Assembly (NCBI GenBank): GCA_965207815.1
Contig: OZ242314.1
Coordinates: 591,234-655,233, forward strand
DNA: 64,000 nt
Origin: Tepidiformaceae bacterium
GTDB taxonomy: Bacteria > Chloroflexota > Dehalococcoidia > Tepidiformales > Tepidiformaceae
Reading direction: 5' to 3'
A program made the position numbers and the translations under genes. The notes under the pieces were generated by a model that did no database searches, was not told the origin of the DNA, and saw nothing but the letters and a program-made list of their open reading frames with translations. Of the stretch, positions 2,407 through 8,523 are shown in pieces. Each line of letters opens with the position of its first letter. Positions within the stretch are counted from its first letter, which is position 1.

Positions 2407-2424
2407 CCTACCACTGGTCCCAGT
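2407..2424. repeat. Direct repeat copy A (CCTACCACTGGTCCCAGT); its partner is at 8541-8558
   Basis: 17 of 18 positions are identical to 8541-8558. This copy overlaps the stop of the GmrSD-like gene. On the reverse strand it encodes a relic ...NWDQW*, which mirrors the nitroreductase C-terminus VHWDQW*. Confidence 0.55.
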
Positions 2425-3405
2425 TAGCCACCCCCTGCGGCTTCCCCTTCAGATGCGAGAGCAAGCACTTCGTTCTCGACGTACCGCTTGAAGGACTCGA
2501 CACTTGTGAAGTGGCGGAACCCATAGTCGTTTGCGATCTGAAGAGTTGCCTGCTCTTCGTCGAGAAGCAAGGCAACTGGCTCGCTTAGCCCTTCCTGCAT
2601 TCCGTGCGGCCAGGCAAGGTCGAGAATCGCCAGCGGGTCGCCAGTGTCTTGGTGCGAGAGTTCGTGCTCGATTTGGCCTTCAGGAAGACCGTACTTCTGG
2701 ACCCAGCTGTTCAGGGCCGCCAAGACCGCTTGTTCCTCGGTGTCTTCGATGCCTCCAGGGATTGCCTTGGGTGCCGGGACCGGGACAGCCGCCAATGGCT
2801 CAGCCACCGTTGGGGGCGTCTCCTCGTGGAGTAACTCCTCAAGCAGGGCGTTTGCCGCATGCGCCAGTAGCTGCTGCCGCGCCTCAAGGAATTGCGGATA
2901 ATTCTCCGTTTCCCACAGATCCTTCTCCATTGGGATCCACTGGGAGGCCAGCGCGCCGGGGTGTTGGGCTTCGATCTCAGGAAAGTACTCCGAGGGAGGC
3001 TTGGCGCCGATCTGCAAGTTCGTGTCCTTCGTCAGAAAGCAAAAGTTCCCAACGGCGTTCACCTGTGATCGATGGTATTCGTTCCGGTACAGCAGGGCCT
3101 TCGGGAAGATGTGGTGGACCTCAAGGCGGTTCATGCTGCCAAGGAGGCCGGTCTTCAGGGCCAACCCAGTGCCCCAGTCCTGAGCTTCTCCGACCCGCGT
3201 CAGTGCGTACAAAACGGGATAGAAGCGAGCCCCTAGGCTCCAGCCCCGGAAGTGTGCGGGCTCAATTCGCAGGCTGCCGTGCCAGAGGCGCAGTTGTTCC
3301 AGCAACTGGTCAACGCCGTGGTCAGGGTCTTCGATGGCCTCAAGGTCTTGGTCGAGGACGGTCTCGGTTGAGCCGGAGAACCTTCCCCACATGGCGCTTT
3401 GGAAA
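2424..3405 (-). pseudogene. GmrSD-like type IV restriction enzyme, C-terminal fragment (DUF1524/HNH-like nuclease half), separated from its N-terminal half by an IS insertion
   Basis: ORF 2424..3392 contains the LEVHHIFPKALL ... NAVGNFCFLTKDTN motifs of DUF1524. Joining it to 7515..8523 restores ...LYWYFQ-SAMWGRFSGSTE... Confidence 0.8.
3398..3405. repeat. Target-site duplication TTTGGAAA (left copy)
   Basis: An identical 8-mer is at 7515-7522. Each copy directly abuts an inverted-repeat terminus. Confidence 0.85.
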
Positions 3406-3448
3406 GGGGACTATATCGCAAAGTGCCCACGGCTCAGGTAGGGTCGGG
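3406..3448. repeat. Left terminal inverted repeat (IRL)
   Basis: About 40 of 43 positions match the reverse complement of 7472-7514, including a 27-bp perfect outer block. Confidence 0.85.
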
Positions 3449-3450
3449 CG

Positions 3451-4323
3451 GTGAGGAAGCGCCTCCCCCGTACGCCTAAGTCCTGCGCCCATTGCGCGCG
3501 GGAGTTTGTTCCAGATCATGGCAACGCCGTGGCGTGCTCCGATGAATGTCGCATGGAGCGGAGGGCGGCGCGCCGCCGTAAGCGCCGCCGCATATGGAGA
3601 CGCAGGCATACCGGCATCCGATGTTTCGGGTGCTTACAGCGGTTCAAGCCCGAAGGTCTGGAACGCTACTGTTCCGAGTCCTGTCGGGAAGGTGGGCTGA
3701 AGCGCTGCGATTGGGACGACTGCGCGGAACGCATTCGGATCGTTCGAGGTAAGCCGACGCGCTATTGCTCCGAGGCTCACATGGAGGCCGCCAGGCGTAG
3801 CGCTCAGGCCCGATCAGAGGCCGCGCGCATCCGGAGGCCGCGCCGCCGACCGTCCAGAGCCCGTCCGGACAAGCACCTGAAGGCACTTGCTAGGGGCGTT
3901 CTGAAGGTTCATCGGGCACGAATGAAACACACCAAAAGGTCGCGGTTCTGTTCTGTCCAATGTGAACTCAAGGATGCTCGCACGAGGGTACGACGGGCGC
4001 AGAGATATCGCGACCGTTACCGGACCGACACGGCGTTTCGCCGATCCGAAAACCGTCGATCGCGCGGGTTACCATCTGAGCGCCGGCGGGAACGGAAGAA
4101 AGCATCAAGAAAGGCGTTTAGAACGGCAGTTTTCCTACAGAGTGCTGGCCGTTGTGAGTATTGCGGGGTGAAGCTGGGCCCTGATTGGCATGTGGATCAC
4201 GTCATGCCCCTCGTGCGAGGGGGAGCGTCTACGCTAGCGAACTGCGTTGCTTCCTGTGTACGTTGCAACATGAAAAAATCTGCCCGTCCCGCGTACGTGA
4301 GACAGGGCGCGCTCCTCGCCTAG
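3451..4323 (+). CDS. HNH endonuclease with an Arg-rich N-terminus carrying four Cys-x2-C...(F/Y)CS-x2-C zinc-finger-like repeats
   Basis: The C-terminus CEYCGVKLGPDWHVDHVMPLVRGGASTLANCVASCVRCNMKK is an HNH motif. The N-terminal repeats are CAHCAREF..ACSDEC, CFGCLQRF..YCSESC, CDWDDC..YCSEAH and FCSVQC. The GTG start lies 2 nt inside IRL. Confidence 0.75.
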   Translation: MRKRLPRTPKSCAHCAREFVPDHGNAVACSDECRMERRAARRRKRRRIWRRRHTGIRCFGCLQRFKPEGLERYCSESCREGGLKRCDWDDCAERIRIVRGKPTRYCSEAHMEAARRSAQARSEAARIRRPRRRPSRARPDKHLKALARGVLKVHRARMKHTKRSRFCSVQCELKDARTRVRRAQRYRDRYRTDTAFRRSENRRSRGLPSERRRERKKASRKAFRTAVFLQSAGRCEYCGVKLGPDWHVDHVMPLVRGGASTLANCVASCVRCNMKKSARPAYVRQGALLA

Positions 4324-4406
4324 GCGACGCGGGCGCCAGAGAACACCGGCGCAGAAGCACCGGCGTAGTTGCACCGGGGGCCGTGCTCCGGATGCTAGAG
4401 TAGGCA

Positions 4407-4447
4407 GACCGCCCGCCTTGAGGTGCTCTAACCCCGGGCGGGCGGTC
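4407..4447. terminator. GC-rich hairpin between the convergent HNH and transposase genes
   Basis: GACCGCCCGCC (4407-4417) pairs with GGCGGGCGGTC (4437-4447) around a 19-nt loop. There is no clear U-tract, so it may be a bidirectional terminator or only a stable structure. Confidence 0.35.
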
Positions 4448-4488
4448 CACCCTCCAAGCGTATCACCGCCGCGACTCAGGCCCCAGCG

Positions 4489-5427
4489 CTACGCCTCCGC
4501 GATGAGGTCCGCGTAGCGGAGCCGCCTACCGATCATCATGCGCGCCAGCAGGCGCATCTGGTCCAGCGTGTCGAGCTCGCGGACGTTGTGGCGGTTCGCG
4601 AACTCCGTGACGTAGCGGTCGAGGTGCTTGTGGCTCATCCAGTGGTAGGTCCCCATGTAGCCGCGCTTCAGCATCGACCAGAAGGACTCGATGCCCTGTG
4701 TGTGCGCCATGTCGCGGACGTACTCACCCGTGCCATGCCGGACGGCCTCGCGGTTCGGGAGCCGGTCGTAGGCGCTCGCCTCGTCCGTGTAGACCATCGC
4801 CCCGTCGGCGGTGTGGTCCCGCACGAATCCGGTCAGGGTCTCCGCGTCCGTGTGGGCGACGACGGCGGCTGAGACGCGGTTTGTGTCGCGGTCTTTCACG
4901 CCCGCGACGGCGGCCTTGCCCACGGTCCCCCGGCCGGCGCGCAGCTTCTTCGAGGCGTGCTTGTTGGCCTCCTTGCCGCCCACGTAGGTCTCGTCGGCCT
5001 CTACCGGTCCGCTGAACAGCTCGCCGCCAGCTTCGGCAGCGGCAGCGCGGAGGCGGTGCGCCAGGTGCCACGCGGACTTCTGCGTGATCTCCAGGTCGCG
5101 GTGGAGCTTGAGGCTGGACACGCCCTTCAGGCTGGTGGTCAGCAGGTACATGGCGAGCGCCCACGTCTGGAACCCGAGCTTCGAGGACTCCATGACCGTA
5201 CCGGTGCGGACGCTGAACCGCTTGCGGCAGTCGCGGCAGCGGAAGCGCATCGTCTTGTGCTTGGCGCCGTCGAGGACGTTCTGCGAGCCGCAGTGGTGGC
5301 AGGCCACGCCATCCGGCCAGCGCTGCTCGACGAACCAGCGCTCGGCGGTGGCGTCGTCGGGGAACATGCGCAGCAGCGCCGTGAGGCTGATGCCCTCGCG
5401 GTTGCTCTTGCCTGGTGCGTTCCCCAT
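4489..5427 (-). CDS. IS1595-family (ISXO2-like) DDE transposase
   Basis: N-terminal zinc ribbon CHHCGS...CRDCRKRF. The DDE_Tnp_IS1595-like core contains EADETYVGG ... VYTDEASAYD ... IESFWSMLKRGYMGTYHWMSHKHLDRYVTEFANRHN. Confidence 0.9.
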   Translation of the reverse strand: MGNAPGKSNREGISLTALLRMFPDDATAERWFVEQRWPDGVACHHCGSQNVLDGAKHKTMRFRCRDCRKRFSVRTGTVMESSKLGFQTWALAMYLLTTSLKGVSSLKLHRDLEITQKSAWHLAHRLRAAAAEAGGELFSGPVEADETYVGGKEANKHASKKLRAGRGTVGKAAVAGVKDRDTNRVSAAVVAHTDAETLTGFVRDHTADGAMVYTDEASAYDRLPNREAVRHGTGEYVRDMAHTQGIESFWSMLKRGYMGTYHWMSHKHLDRYVTEFANRHNVRELDTLDQMRLLARMMIGRRLRYADLIAEA

Positions 5428-5607
5428 GTCTCCGGCTCCTTTAGAGTAGTATAGTGCCCAAAGCGCACGGAGTCAACGCGCCACCTTGACACCCTCCGGC
5501 CCGTAGGCCCCACTGCTGGGGCGGCTGTCGCACTTGACAACCCGCAAGAATCCGCCCCCATACTGTGACCAGCACAGACGGGCGGCAGCCCGGAGGGATA
5601 CACCTAG

Positions 5608-5760
5608 ATGGCCGACGCTGAGCGCAAGCCTGCGCACCATGCAAAGGGACGCCCACCCCGCCCGTACCAGAACGAGCAGGACCTGCGGATCGACATGTCG
5701 CCCGAGGAATTGGCGAAAGCCGTCCTCAGCGGCAAGGGCGTAGACGCGGAAAGCGACTAG
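5608..5760 (+). CDS. Hypothetical 50-aa protein, not in the ORF track
   Basis: My own translation gives MADAERKPAHHAKGRPPRPYQNEQDLRIDMSPEELAKAVLSGKGVDAESD. GGAGGG lies about 9 nt upstream of the ATG, and a TTGACA box is further upstream. Its stop abuts the tRNA on the opposite strand. Confidence 0.3.
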   Translation: MADAERKPAHHAKGRPPRPYQNEQDLRIDMSPEELAKAVLSGKGVDAESD

Positions 5761-5833
5761 CGCCCCAGGCAGGACTCGAACCTGCGACCCCCCAGGTGGT
5801 AACCGGGCGCTCTATCCTCTGAGCTACTGAGGC
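5761..5833 (-). tRNA. Class I tRNA, formal anticodon ACC (would read Gly GGU); isotype ambiguous
   Basis: Hand-folded cloverleaf: GCCUCAG UA GCUC AGAGGAUA GAGC G CCCGG UUACCAC CUGGG GGGUC GCAGG UUCGAGU CCUGC CUGGGGC G. All four stems are intact. It has discriminator G73 and no encoded CCA. Confidence 0.75.
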
Positions 5834-5857
5834 GCTGGAGCAACAAGGAGGGAGAGG

Positions 5858-5941
5858 CGGAGACGGGGAGATTCGAACTCCCGAAACCCGAAGGCTTACC
5901 CGCTTCTGAGGCGGGCTCCATAACCGCTCGGACACGTCTCC
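5858..5941 (-). tRNA. Class II (long variable arm) tRNA with a Ser-type body and anticodon CAG (Leu codon CUG)
   Basis: Hand fold: GGAGACG UG UCCGAGCGGUUAUGGAG CCCGC CUCAGAA GCGGG UAAGCCUUCGGGUUUC GGGAG UUCGAAU CUCCC CGUCUCC G. It has a perfect 7-bp acceptor stem, discriminator G73, A37 and a 16-nt variable arm. CCA is not fully encoded. Confidence 0.8.
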
Positions 5942-5996
5942 GCTCACTCCCTCCCCCGAACCGTACCAGCGCTCCCGACGGAGGCCCAGCGCGCCG

Positions 5997-6419
5997 TCAG
6001 CGCCACCATTCCTCCTCGCACTGCGCCCCGTCCGTGTTCACGAACAGCCGGTCGTCGTAGAACTCGACCGGCACCAGGCAGCGGTAGGTGGGCAGGTACC
6101 GATCCGGCTGCCCGTACTGCGAGCGGACGGCGGCGGTCTCGTAGGCATGGAGCATCTCCACCAGCACGACGCCCTCGCGGTGGGAGTAGCCGACGCACTC
6201 CGCGTAGACCACGCGCGCCTTCGTAGGGTCGCTGTTGCGGCTCATGACGTTGCGCGTGAGCCGGTCGCAGGCCAAGCGTTCGCGCTCGGCCTGGATCTCC
6301 CTGAGTGAGGGCGTGGGCTCGGGTGCCGGCGTCGGGGGAGGTTCGGCGGCTCCCCCGCAAGCTGCGAGGATGGCCAGCGCGACCACGGCGAGTACAAGAA
6401 CGCGTCGCACGGCTAGCAC
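5997..6419 (-). CDS. Cys-rich lipoprotein (hypothetical)
   Basis: Signal peptide plus lipobox (V/M)LAVRRVLVLAVVALAILAAC, followed by a Pro-rich linker. The GTG start overlaps the stop of the upstream small ORF by 7 nt. Confidence 0.6.
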   Translation of the reverse strand: MLAVRRVLVLAVVALAILAACGGAAEPPPTPAPEPTPSLREIQAERERLACDRLTRNVMSRNSDPTKARVVYAECVGYSHREGVVLVEMLHAYETAAVRSQYGQPDRYLPTYRCLVPVEFYDDRLFVNTDGAQCEEEWWR

Positions 6420-6601
6420 TCGAACGTCCGGTTGTACATCTCACAGGACGCCCGCGAGCCCTGCGCGCAGAGGCGCTCCCATCGCTCGCAGTCGCCCTCG
6501 GAACACGCGTCCACAGCGACGGCGCAGCCGCCCACGATGGCGGCGACGAACAGGACGAGGAACAGGTAGGCGCGGACCGGATAGCGCCGCTGGTCTGTCA
6601 C
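6413..6601 (-). CDS. Small Cys-rich lipoprotein (hypothetical)
   Basis: Within ORF 6413..6787 an internal GTG at 6601 gives VTDQRRYPVRAYLFLVLFVAAIVGGCAVAVDACSEGDCERWERLCAQGSRASCEMYNRTFEC, which has a signal/lipobox pattern. The start and RBS are weak. Confidence 0.4.
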   Translation of the reverse strand: MTDQRRYPVRAYLFLVLFVAAIVGGCAVAVDACSEGDCERWERLCAQGSRASCEMYNRTFEC

Positions 6602-6936
6602 AGAGGAGCCCTCTTGCGGCAGGATGAGGCGAACCTGTGGAAAGCCACCGTCGATCCGACATGGGCCGCAAGGGGGCGCGAGCGCGCCCCATCCCGTGAA
6701 TCCCACGCCGGGGTAGGTGACTTTCCACAGTCGCGCTCGATGCTGCGCGACAGCGCAAGGGGTGTCAAGGTTTCCGGCGGGCGGCAAAGGCTCGGGCGGG
6801 TAGGCGTTTTAGCAGAGGGGCTGGGCCTGCGGCTCAGGCGGTGATACGCTTCGGAGGACCGCCCCGGGGCCCTCAAAGGTCTGGTCGGCCACCTCGGGGC
6901 GGTCTCCCGATTCTACCATCCACAGGCTCCCCGCCC

Positions 6937-7149
6937 ATGCCCGTCTACTGCGTGCGCCCTATCCCGTACGGCGGCGGCTGGTACGTCGCGCCGGAGGGCT
7001 CGCCGTTCGCGCTACAGACCTTCCGGCAGCGCGGGGACGCGATCAGGGAGGCGCGCAAGCTGCGCGGCCGGGAGCGGGGAGAGGTCAGGGTGTACGGCTA
7101 TGACGGGCGCTACAGCTACTCGGACACCGCGCCGTGGCTCGGGGACTGA
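6937..7149 (+). CDS. DUF2188-like small protein
   Basis: From the internal ATG at 6937 the sequence is MPVYCVRPIPYGGGWYVAPEGSPFALQTFRQRGDAIREARKLRGRERGEVRVYGYDGRYSY. This fits the DUF2188 pattern (GW.V...g......f....eAi..Ar.......e..v...dG). Confidence 0.55.
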   Translation: MPVYCVRPIPYGGGWYVAPEGSPFALQTFRQRGDAIREARKLRGRERGEVRVYGYDGRYSYSDTAPWLGD

Positions 7150-7469
7150 AGATCGCCCGCCTCGCGCCACTGCGCGAGTCTCGCCGCCCGGTTCTCCATC
7201 TCGGTGGCCGTAACTCCGTCGAGGATTCCCGAATCCGGTTCCGCGTAGAGCCAGAGGTCGTCGAAGTCGTGCGCGACGGTGAAACCGCACCGGTCGCAGA
7301 GCCAGTTCATTGCATTAATCTCGGTGAGAGGCCCGCCGCAGTCTGTGCAGAACCTGGCAACGAAGTAGATGCGGAGGCAGGGCAAACACTGGCGATCCTT
7401 ACCGAACGGCTCCAGCGTCGCGCCGCAGCACAGGCAGGTGTTCGGCTGCGCGTTCTCATGAATGGCCAT
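7116..7469 (-). CDS. Zinc-ribbon protein (hypothetical)
   Basis: Three CxxC pairs are present: CLCCG..CLPC, CTDCGG and CDRCG. The start (GTG 7472 or ATG 7469) sits at the inner edge of IRR, mirroring the HNH gene at IRL. Confidence 0.5.
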   Translation of the reverse strand: MAIHENAQPNTCLCCGATLEPFGKDRQCLPCLRIYFVARFCTDCGGPLTEINAMNWLCDRCGFTVAHDFDDLWLYAEPDSGILDGVTATEMENRAARLAQWREAGDLQSPSHGAVSE

Positions 7470-7471
7470 CA

Positions 7472-7514
7472 CCCGACCCTACCGTACCCGTGGGCACTTT
7501 GCGATATAGTCCCC
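7472..7514. repeat. Right terminal inverted repeat (IRR)
   Basis: Its reverse complement matches IRL at 3406-3448. Confidence 0.85.
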
Positions 7515-7522
7515 TTTGGAAA
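7515..7522. repeat. Target-site duplication TTTGGAAA (right copy)
   Basis: Identical to 3398-3405. Confidence 0.85.
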
Positions 7523-8523
7523 TACCAGTACAGGAGTCGGTCCCGCTCCCTTGCATCGGTAAGATGGCCGCCACGGGCGTCGATGTAACGAGCCATGATG
7601 GGGAGCGCGTATCGGCCAAAGAGGACGCGGTTGTGGTCTAGGCCCAGCCGTCCCCCGATCAGATTCAGCGCGTGATCGACGCTCTTTTCGGCTCTGGCAA
7701 GGCCGTCCTTAACCGCTTCCGTGGCCTCGTCGTGGAGGTACGCGAATCGAGCTTCACCGGTCACGATGGCGTTGACGTTGCGCAGCAGCCAGTCGAGGTT
7801 GAAGTCGTACCCGTTCTCGTGCCACCGAGACAGGATCGCTTGCATCTCCTCGCGCCCCTCCGGCCATGAGCCGCATATCTTGGCGAGCGCCAGATCGCCC
7901 TGGGACAGCTTGGTACCTCCGCTGTTGACTCGATTGAAGATGTCGACAACCACGTCGATCGTCTTGTCAGTGCCGGTCACCTCCTCGACGTGAAGGTCGA
8001 CCTGGCTAATACCGAGGATTCGGTTCAACCTTCCGAACATCGCACCGGTCTCGGCGGCAATATCGGGGTGCTGCGCTAGGCGTGTGATCTGCTCGCCAAC
8101 CCCGTCGTTCCCCTTCTGCATGAGTGCAGAGACATCGATCCAGAGGGGGTCGTCCTGCATCACAGAGGGCTGGTAGAACCGAAACTCCTCGTTACCGAGA
8201 TGGAAGTACAGTCCGCTGAACGCCCTCTCGCTGCCATCGAAAAAGGTCGGCGGCTTGCCCCGGATGATTCCGTAGAGGGAGGTTATCCGCTGCTGGCCAT
8301 CCAGGAGTAGCCGTACCACCCCTGGTGCAAGATCGTGCTCTCCACGATGGCTGACCCCGTCGGCAGGCGTGACCCACACCAGAAGGCTCCCCACAGGGTG
8401 TCGATGGTAGAGGGAATCCATCAACCCCCTGACCTGGTCGCGATTCCAGACATAACCACGCTGAAACTTCGGCAGCGCCATGTAGCCACTGTCGATGTGA
8501 TTGAGAATGTCCGAGACTTGCAT
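7515..8523 (-). pseudogene. GmrSD-like type IV restriction enzyme, N-terminal fragment (DUF262/ParB-like NTPase half)
   Basis: MQVSDILNHIDSGYMALPKFQRGYVWNRDQVRGLMDSLYHRHPVGSLLVW is the DUF262 signature. ORF 7456..8523 runs into IRR and picks up a 19-aa foreign tail, RGLYRKVPTGTVGSGDGHS. Confidence 0.8.

Follow-up and report, generated by a model that had tools for sequence, protein, structure and literature searches.

A 64-kb stretch of contig OZ242314.1 from a Tepidiformaceae bacterium (hereafter the window) holds a gene for a predicted GmrSD/BrxU-like anti-phage restriction enzyme that is interrupted by a 4109-bp insertion (positions 3406-7514). The insertion is, with little room for doubt, a single mobile unit that landed in the gene, namely a transporter insertion sequence (tIS) of the IS1595 family. 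Insertion sequences (IS) of this kind, with passenger genes, are an established group that reportedly occurs only in the IS1595 and IS66 families (10.1101/2021.05.26.445724). The element already belongs to a described category, and the splitting of the gene is an ordinary event; the parts of most note are a conserved tRNA-like gene and a conserved leader inside the element. The locus nevertheless offers a clean, probably recent and fully reconstructable case in which a defence gene appears to have been lost to transposition in a GC-rich genome.

The insertion is bracketed by two copies of an 8-bp duplication, TTTGGAAA, and directly inside them lie inverted repeats (IRs) whose arms begin GGGGACTATATCGCAAAGTGCCCACGG at 3406 on the forward strand and at 7514 on the reverse strand. 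An earlier reading of this DNA, made from the sequence only, had placed the duplication at the same two positions and estimated the IRs at about 43 bp. Both claims stood: the duplication is perfect and occurs exactly twice in the window, and the IRs are identical over their first 27 nt, with similarity that extends to about 48 nt (88% complementary over 56-nt arms with the duplication included). With up to three mismatches allowed, the 27-mer of the IR was found in these two places only, against none expected from shuffled sequences. The G+C content of the element equals that of the window (66.7% and 66.5%, respectively), and the uninterrupted site, with the element removed and a single TTTGGAAA retained, would read ...CTGTACTGGTATTTCCAAAGCGCCATGTGG....

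Between the IRs lies the sole transposase gene copy of the window (Table 1). Its product, with the motif DETY...TDE...ESFWSMLK, matched PF12762, for DDE transposases of the ISXO2/IS1595 type (E 3.6e-37; 128 bits, cut-off 27), the NCBIfam model NF033547 (transpos_IS1595; E 3e-53, 181 bits against 75) and, at amino acids (aa) 23-69, the zinc ribbon PF12760 (E 2.6e-07, 30.9 bits against 25.4), in agreement with the family proposed earlier. The element resembles other IS1595 tIS in its DDE transposase with an N-terminal zinc ribbon, its IRs starting GGGG-ACTATAT, its 8-bp duplication and its passengers within the IRs, and its 4.1 kb presumably falls in the size range of ISNwi1-type tIS. It differs in that the transposase gene is central, with cargo to both sides, and in that its clade has a conserved DUF2188 gene, a structured leader, a lipoprotein cassette and a tRNA-like gene. 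Literature searches found none of these four described for IS1595 elements, and the transposases that a search of plasmids returned were 45% identical at best and bore no more specific name than "IS1595 family transposase".

Deletion of 3406-7522 fuses two reverse-strand open reading frames (ORFs; 7456-8523 and 2424-3392) into a single 660-aa ORF, as had been read from the sequence. The restored junction reads ...RDRLLYWYFQ/SAMWGRFSGSTE... (the slash marks the insertion point), which corresponds to codons 333/334 of the restored gene (WYFQ/S motif). A search of 5.8 billion proteins returned more than 100 intact relatives of the restored ORF with lengths of 650-665 aa, up to 80% identity and 100% query coverage. 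When the restored ORF was aligned with nine intact homologs, the junction was collinear and free of gaps, and it lay within a nearly invariant block. The insertion is probably recent, because the duplication and the 27-nt ends are free of mismatches and no secondary lesion is seen in either half of the gene. The 5' part of the gene now extends 22 codons into the IR and then meets a stop. At 60-61% G+C, compared with 67-70% in the flanks (TetR/P450 and nitroreductase/enoyl-CoA hydratase genes), the composition of the interrupted gene suggests that it was acquired horizontally.

The restored protein had been predicted to combine a DUF262 half and a DUF1524/HNH-like half, and a profile search of the rejoined ORF clearly identified the first of these: Pfam GmrSD_N (PF03235, DUF262) covers aa 3-216 (E 1.3e-26), the DGQQR motif (D75-G-Q-Q-R79) is invariant in the homolog alignment, and an LxDS motif is also present in this domain. 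With the full 660-aa protein, Pfam gave no C-terminal family at E<0.01, and the assignment of the C-terminal half to DUF1524 has weak support from sequence and model comparisons. The PADLOC profile HEC-05 matched in a single stretch (aa 70-522, E 3.2e-43) that crosses the junction and covers profile positions 113 to 593 of 600. The C-terminal motif E-V-H-H-I-F-P...N...N does not vary among homologs (invariant residues E429, H431, H432, N450, N454 and N463), and EVHHIFP aligns weakly to hvDHIYPk of BrxU. The C-terminal half as modelled by AlphaFold (mean predicted local distance difference test, pLDDT, 81) has helices around a nuclease core, and Foldseek matched this model to BrxU (7p9m; probability 1.00, root-mean-square deviation 4.9 Å, E 0.02) and to Cas9 HNH domains (E 3e-3).

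BrxU (7p9k) was also the sole solved structure recovered by a profile search with the restored protein (E 1.3e-18), and hence the best relative among solved structures by sequence as well as by fold. HEC-05 denotes BrxU-type, GmrSD-like proteins with the functional motifs DGQQR (nucleotide hydrolysis) and (D/E)HIxP (10.1101/2024.01.29.577857), and both positions are conserved in the restored protein according to the homolog alignment. Like BrxU and HEC-05 proteins (PDB 7P9K; PMC8565348; 10.1101/2024.01.29.577857), it is a single polypeptide with an N-terminal DUF262 domain bearing DGQQR and LxDS, a long helical linker and a C-terminal His-Me motif of the form xHIxP...N...N. It differs from BrxU in that the aligned nuclease part is only about 20% identical, in the replacement of the acidic residue of DHIYP by His (HHIFP), in an additional conserved C-terminal domain, and in that its gene is interrupted and not adjacent to BREX. 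We accept the restored protein as GmrSD/BrxU-like in architecture and probable mechanism. The additional domain (IPGGIE...LDLAWP...GFRHFT...) follows the nuclease region and comprises about 110 aa (aa ~550-660, window 2424-2760, reverse strand). It matched no Pfam family and was modelled confidently as an alpha/beta fold (pLDDT about 90-97).

Further insertions of the same clade bear on whether the cargo travels with the transposase. A 23-nt element end was used to scan 185,579 species genomes and found one locus (L001), in a metagenome-assembled genome of the Tepidiformaceae (Chloroflexota), as two inverted matches 3461 bp apart. Additional insertions were located on metagenome contigs via close transposase relatives (77-96% identity). 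The duplications are TTGCATTG on both sides of the 3461-bp element in L001, CTTCCAAA in L082 (3063 bp), ATTGGAAA in L083 (3013 bp), where a fumarase gene is split, TTGAGGAA in L084 (2800 bp), and CTTTGAAA in L086 (3229 bp), which lies beside a host tRNA-Arg. L085 is a near-identical contig to L084 from a different sample, and L088 is a seventh clade copy, truncated by the contig end. The first 25 nt of the HNH-side IR are identical in L001. Including the window, the same ends are found at six different sites, each with its own 8-bp duplication, and the five other insertions hold the same gene order within these ends, which argues that the cargo-bearing unit would transpose as a whole. The IRs are thus the termini of the element, as the sequence-only reading had it: all five clade insertions share them in different flanks, and none of these transposase copies has other ends.

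It is highly improbable that the 4.1 kb is not one element, i.e., that an IS of about 1.1 kb sits inside unrelated DNA between solo IRs, or that the ends are a pair of miniature inverted-repeat transposable elements, with cargo that does not travel. Such an arrangement would fit the position of the transposase gene mid-unit, with 1.08 kb between it and one end and 2.09 kb between it and the other (its start is about 90 nt from one IR in most relatives), and an IR-like string, AGTGCCCA, immediately upstream of it. However, this string belongs to the transposase promoter, of which it is the -10 region, and its orientation is wrong, there are no further IR copies in the window even at three mismatches, and the five further insertions show the same gene order and ends with duplications of their own. 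The idea that the string is a relic IR left by two fused elements was rejected on the same grounds of promoter identity and orientation.

The wider family is illustrated by eighty metagenome loci with transposases 46-69% identical to that of the window. These have GGGRMYTATATAC... ends, AT-rich 8-bp duplications and lengths of 2.0-3.1 kb (6.1 kb in one case), with the transposase beside one end and cargo behind it, and about a dozen distant relatives also show terminal IRs with an 8-bp duplication. Three distant relatives have cargo of restriction-modification type: L002 (6966-8332) has, as judged by eye from the translations, a putative MT-A70-like methyltransferase, recognized by its DPPW motif, and a putative endonuclease, L007 (1530-2954) has a methyltransferase-HNH fusion, and L021 (1449-1808) has a shortened version of that fusion.

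Phages typically carry HNH endonucleases, tRNA genes and small lipoproteins as accessory genes, and PHROG matches were obtained for both the HNH protein (HNH families) and the DUF2188 protein (one PHROG). These could point to a degraded prophage or phage-derived island that entered by site-specific recombination and later took up the IS1595 transposase as a passenger. We regard this origin as scarcely credible: ORF translations and Pfam revealed no integrase, structural or replication genes in the element, 50,697 phage genomes gave only generic tRNA similarity, and three scans of viral contigs (with the element end, a degenerate end and the leader core) did not find the element, two leader-core hits being chance matches. 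Moreover, terminal IRs with an 8-bp duplication are a signature of DDE transposition and not of att recombination.

Several points weigh against the reading of a tIS that has inactivated a GmrSD/BrxU-like enzyme, or against parts of it. The count of one copy of the element covers the 64-kb window. Assignment to the ISNwi1-like subgroup (GGnnatTAT ends and a DDEK motif in ISfinder) is tentative; the ends of the element, GGGGACTAT, and the transposase motif look consistent with it by eye. GmrSD_C (PF07510, DUF1524) scored 19.3 bits (E 0.0011) on the C-terminal half alone, under the 23-bit cut-off, and Foldseek gave no match to the model of this half at E<=0.001. Both pieces of the gene are still open, with 355 aa in the DUF262 fragment and 322 aa in the C-terminal ORF. 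The knock-out of a defence gene that had been proposed earlier agrees with the position of the split, between the DUF262 domain and the C-terminal half, and it is from this split that we infer a loss of restriction activity.

For a tIS inserted in this manner, the DDE transposase would recognize the terminal IRs (27 nt perfect, about 48 nt similar) and would insert the whole 4.1-kb unit through an 8-bp staggered cut, probably favoring AT-rich 8-mers of the form TTTSSAAA, which are rare in these GC-rich genomes. The insertion would part the DUF262 NTPase domain at the N-terminus from the His-Me nuclease at the C-terminus and so inactivate a type IV restriction enzyme. In the close clade the duplications resemble TTTGGAAA, and those of distant relatives are AT-rich. 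Only 0.93% of the 8-mers in the window contain at least six A/T, and the restriction gene holds 5.6% of these AT-rich 8-mers in 3.3% of the window length. Three of the seven clade insertions are in or beside genes of defence type: apart from the window, L001 lies 158 bp from a DpdB/DndB-like gene (5417-6634), and L088 is near a McrB-like AAA protein (4997-7252; PADLOC PDC-S02). This proportion is suggestive of a compositional bias but not significant in so small a sample; with its preference for AT-rich 8-mers and a target gene here of higher A+T content than the flanks, the element may be biased toward such loci.

To separate the backbone of the element from exchangeable cargo, we compared the window copy with L001, L082, L083, L084 and L086. 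In the direction of the transposase gene, the order is IR, slot 1, DUF2188 gene (reverse), promoter and leader, lipoprotein cassette (slot 2), tRNA-like gene, a 50-aa ORF (reverse), transposase promoter, transposase, slot 3 and IR. L084 is without the block of leader, cassette and tRNA-like gene; there, the DUF2188 gene is directly divergent from the transposase gene and a small ORF lies downstream. Every clade copy has non-transposase genes between the same ends, with content that varies at the three slots, and the window copy is the largest, with all three slots filled. The contents listed in the sequence-only reading (an HNH protein, the transposase, DUF2188, a weak zinc ribbon, two tRNA genes and two small lipoproteins) were all recovered by Pfam, tRNA calls and translations. 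The accompanying view that everything other than the transposase is cargo was upheld for the variable slots; it did not extend to the DUF2188 gene, the 50-aa ORF, the promoter and leader and one tRNA-like gene, which are conserved across the clade. Together with swappable lipoprotein genes, these conserved parts widen the repertoire of IS1595 tIS.

Table 1. Features of the interrupted gene and of the inserted element, in window coordinates (TSD, target-site duplication; RBS, ribosome-binding site).
Feature	Position	Strand	Basis or remark
3' part of interrupted gene (linker, His-Me/HNH-like motif, C-terminal domain)	2424-3397	-	alignment, AlphaFold, Foldseek
TSD, left copy, TTTGGAAA	3398-3405	.	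8-mer elsewhere in window only at 7515-7522
Terminal IR, HNH side (far end relative to transposase start)	3406-3453	+	first 27 nt equal to other end
Slot 3: 290-aa protein, four CxxC...CSxxC zinc-ribbon repeats, C-terminal HNH nuclease domain	3451-4323	+	Pfam HNH
GC-rich hairpin repeat, copy A, between convergent HNH and transposase genes	4377-4487	.	-62 kcal/mol, z -3.1
IS1595-family DDE transposase, 312 aa, N-terminal zinc ribbon	4489-5427	-	PF12762, PF12760, NF033547
Transposase promoter-like site TTGACT-17-TATACT, then AAAGGAG	5448-5476	-	10/12 matches
Conserved 50-aa ORF (...YQNEQDLRIDMSPEELAKAVLSGKG...), divergent from transposase	5608-5760	+	conservation
tRNA-like gene, called tRNA-Gly(ACC)	5760-5833	-	ARAGORN; Rfam RF00005, 60.9 bits
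tRNA-Leu(CAG), long variable arm (slot 2)	5856-5941	-	tRNA calls; 55.4 bits
Predicted lipoprotein, 140 aa, signal peptide ...LAILAAC (slot 2)	5997-6419	-	translation
Cys-rich predicted lipoprotein, 63 aa, GTG start, ...AAIVGGC; first cassette gene (slot 2)	6413-6604	-	translation
Conserved -35 box (TTGACA) and ~140-nt structured leader, ending at cassette RBS and GTG	6596-6774	-	conservation, fold
GC-rich hairpin repeat, copy B	6820-6930	.	-56 kcal/mol, z -2.6; copy A inverted
DUF2188 protein, 70 aa	6937-7149	+	PF09954, E 1.3e-07
Slot 1: Cys-rich, zinc-ribbon-like protein, 118 aa	7116-7472	-	weak Pfam Zn_ribbon_6 (double zinc ribbon), E 0.0035
Terminal IR, DUF2188 side	7467-7514	-	repeat comparison of the two ends
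TSD, right copy, TTTGGAAA	7515-7522	.	8-mer elsewhere in window only at 3398-3405
5' part of interrupted gene (DUF262 with DGQQR, codons 1 to about 333)	7523-8523	-	Pfam, homolog alignment

Two of the conserved parts encode small proteins. DUF2188 is 74-93% identical in L001, L082, L083, L084 and L085 and frameshifted in L086 and L088; a sequence search against solved structures gave no match for it, and in the literature this family is tied to defence by prediction only. The 50-aa ORF is 88-98% identical in L001, L082, L083 and L086 and 57-60% identical in L084, L085 and L088. It matched no Pfam family, and a single-sequence search of 1.8 billion representatives returned three hits only, the query being too short. 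The conservation of DUF2188 and the small ORF across the clade makes it more likely that both serve IS-associated functions than that they are random cargo, and the small ORF may be an unrecognized IS-encoded accessory protein. In L084, the small ORF is at 7990-8160. By eye, a small ORF with the pattern ...YQxxxxxLxxDxxxEELAKAVL... is also present at the right end of the distant loci L002 (8266-8502), L007 (2947-3138) and L021 (1832-2020).

The slots themselves hold proteins with few relatives. The 118-aa Cys-rich protein of slot 1 had no homolog in any related locus and is specific to the window copy. Both small Cys-rich proteins of slot 2 have lipobox-like signal peptides (LAAC and VGGC), as read from the translations; the 63-aa protein had neither a Pfam family nor a homolog in the related loci, and the 140-aa protein, also with no Pfam family, is 39% identical to a protein in the same slot of L086. 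In slot 3, the HNH domain (PF01844) of the 290-aa protein covers aa 235-279 (E 6e-12) and is matched by PHROG HNH endonuclease families as well. The N-terminal part of this protein is 41% identical to an HNH-less zinc-finger/helix-turn-helix protein at the same position in L001, and the HNH gene is confined to the window copy within the clade. The 290-aa protein is otherwise an orphan among the 5.8 billion proteins, where the search returned P0241 (100% identical over its full length and presumably from the same genome) and one weak match.

The transposase promoter site is conserved in L001. No other DNA of the element is as well conserved as the region of the second promoter and its leader, which precedes the lipoprotein cassette and is 89% identical to L001. 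In a four-copy alignment, the genes behind the leader were unrelated between copies despite its conservation. A consensus fold of five copies gave a long hairpin (-65 kcal/mol) with compensatory changes in three pairs, and the leader holds a stretch complementary to the ribosome-binding site, pointing to a possible anti-RBS pairing. The leader had no Rfam match at E<=1.

The tRNA-like gene has homologs in L001 (3858-3929, reverse strand), L082 (5558-5632), L083 (5558-5633) and L086 (5588-5660), with Rfam tRNA scores of 51.7-53.9 bits (threshold 29). Its acceptor, D and T arms are near-identical in the five copies, and compensatory pairs occur in the acceptor, T and anticodon stems, but the anticodon stem and loop differ in every lineage. 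The loop is UUACCAC in the window copy, GCACCAG in L082 (C33), GGGCCAU in L083 (G33) and GUCGCA, of 6 nt, in both L001 and L086, the stems of which differ by compensatory changes. Only the window copy has a regular 7-nt loop with U33 and purine 37, so that the loops of four of the five copies are non-standard. G73 and C3:G70 were found in all five copies, C35-C36 in three of the five, and A34 in the window copy and L082. The bacterial tRNA-Gly identity set, as defined in E. coli, comprises U73, G1:C72, C2:G71, G3:C70, C35 and C36, and the copies fail it at G73 and C3:G70. A34 (ACC) is unusual in bacteria, where it is not known to be used for Gly. Together, this pattern of conservation suggests that the gene is under selection for tRNA shape, but probably not for standard decoding. 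The neighboring tRNA-Leu(CAG) is ordinary in appearance and present in the window copy only: it is missing from the L001 alignment, and L082, L083 and L086 have no second tRNA inside the element. The earlier description of the element as a vehicle that moves tRNAs consequently stands for a conserved tRNA-shaped gene and not for a conserved set of decoding tRNAs. A possible origin of the tRNA-like gene as a copy of a neighboring host tRNA was also considered and set aside: it shares 55 of 73 positions with the tRNA-Arg(CCG) adjacent to L086, and other host tRNAs are equally similar, which makes the comparison uninformative.

Whether the tRNA genes nonetheless decode in the ordinary way, spread by the IS as a supplement to codon usage, seems to us doubtful, although the idea has some merit. 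Both genes score above the Rfam threshold and fold as cloverleaves, the Gly-like gene of the window has its regular 7-nt loop with U33, and tRNA-Leu(CAG) combines a regular loop with a long variable arm. Against this stand the loops of the four homologs, the A34 of the window copy and the G73 and C3:G70 of all copies described above, the restriction of tRNA-Leu(CAG) to one copy, and the lack of an encoded CCA.

A more speculative proposal, which we put forward by analogy and consider improbable as it stands, is that the conserved block of promoter, 140-nt leader, exchangeable lipoprotein cassette and tRNA-shaped RNA forms a dedicated IS-borne platform for expression and processing and did not come along by accident. 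The RNA would then act not as a decoder but as a tRNA mimic, either as a decoy or antidote for nucleases that attack the anticodon arm or as a signal for RNase P/Z, which would account for an anticodon arm that varies by lineage on a near-constant cloverleaf. Phage-encoded tRNAs can evade anticodon nucleases by means of altered anticodon loops (PMC10264068; PMC11555353). The likeness lies in a mobile element with a tRNA-shaped gene that varies in its anticodon arm from one close relative to the next and is otherwise conserved. The differences are that the carrier is an IS and not a phage and that several of the loops (6 nt, or without U33) look incompatible with decoding, so that the comparison is an analogy only. 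If the platform and mimic were real, they would represent a new kind of IS accessory function, and a functional tRNA-like RNA would join IS elements to a tRNA-centered arms race hitherto described for phages. For these and the other carried genes, any function is something we infer.

A GC-rich hairpin repeat of about 110 nt also sets the window copy apart. It matched no Rfam family, even at E<=1, and was found neither elsewhere in the 64-kb window nor in other copies of the element. Copy B falls within a 124-nt stretch (about 6806-6929), between the DUF2188 gene and the leader promoter, that is missing in L001, L082 and L083. The two full copies are inverted relative to each other and lie at module boundaries, and a partial third copy is present at 5952-5990.

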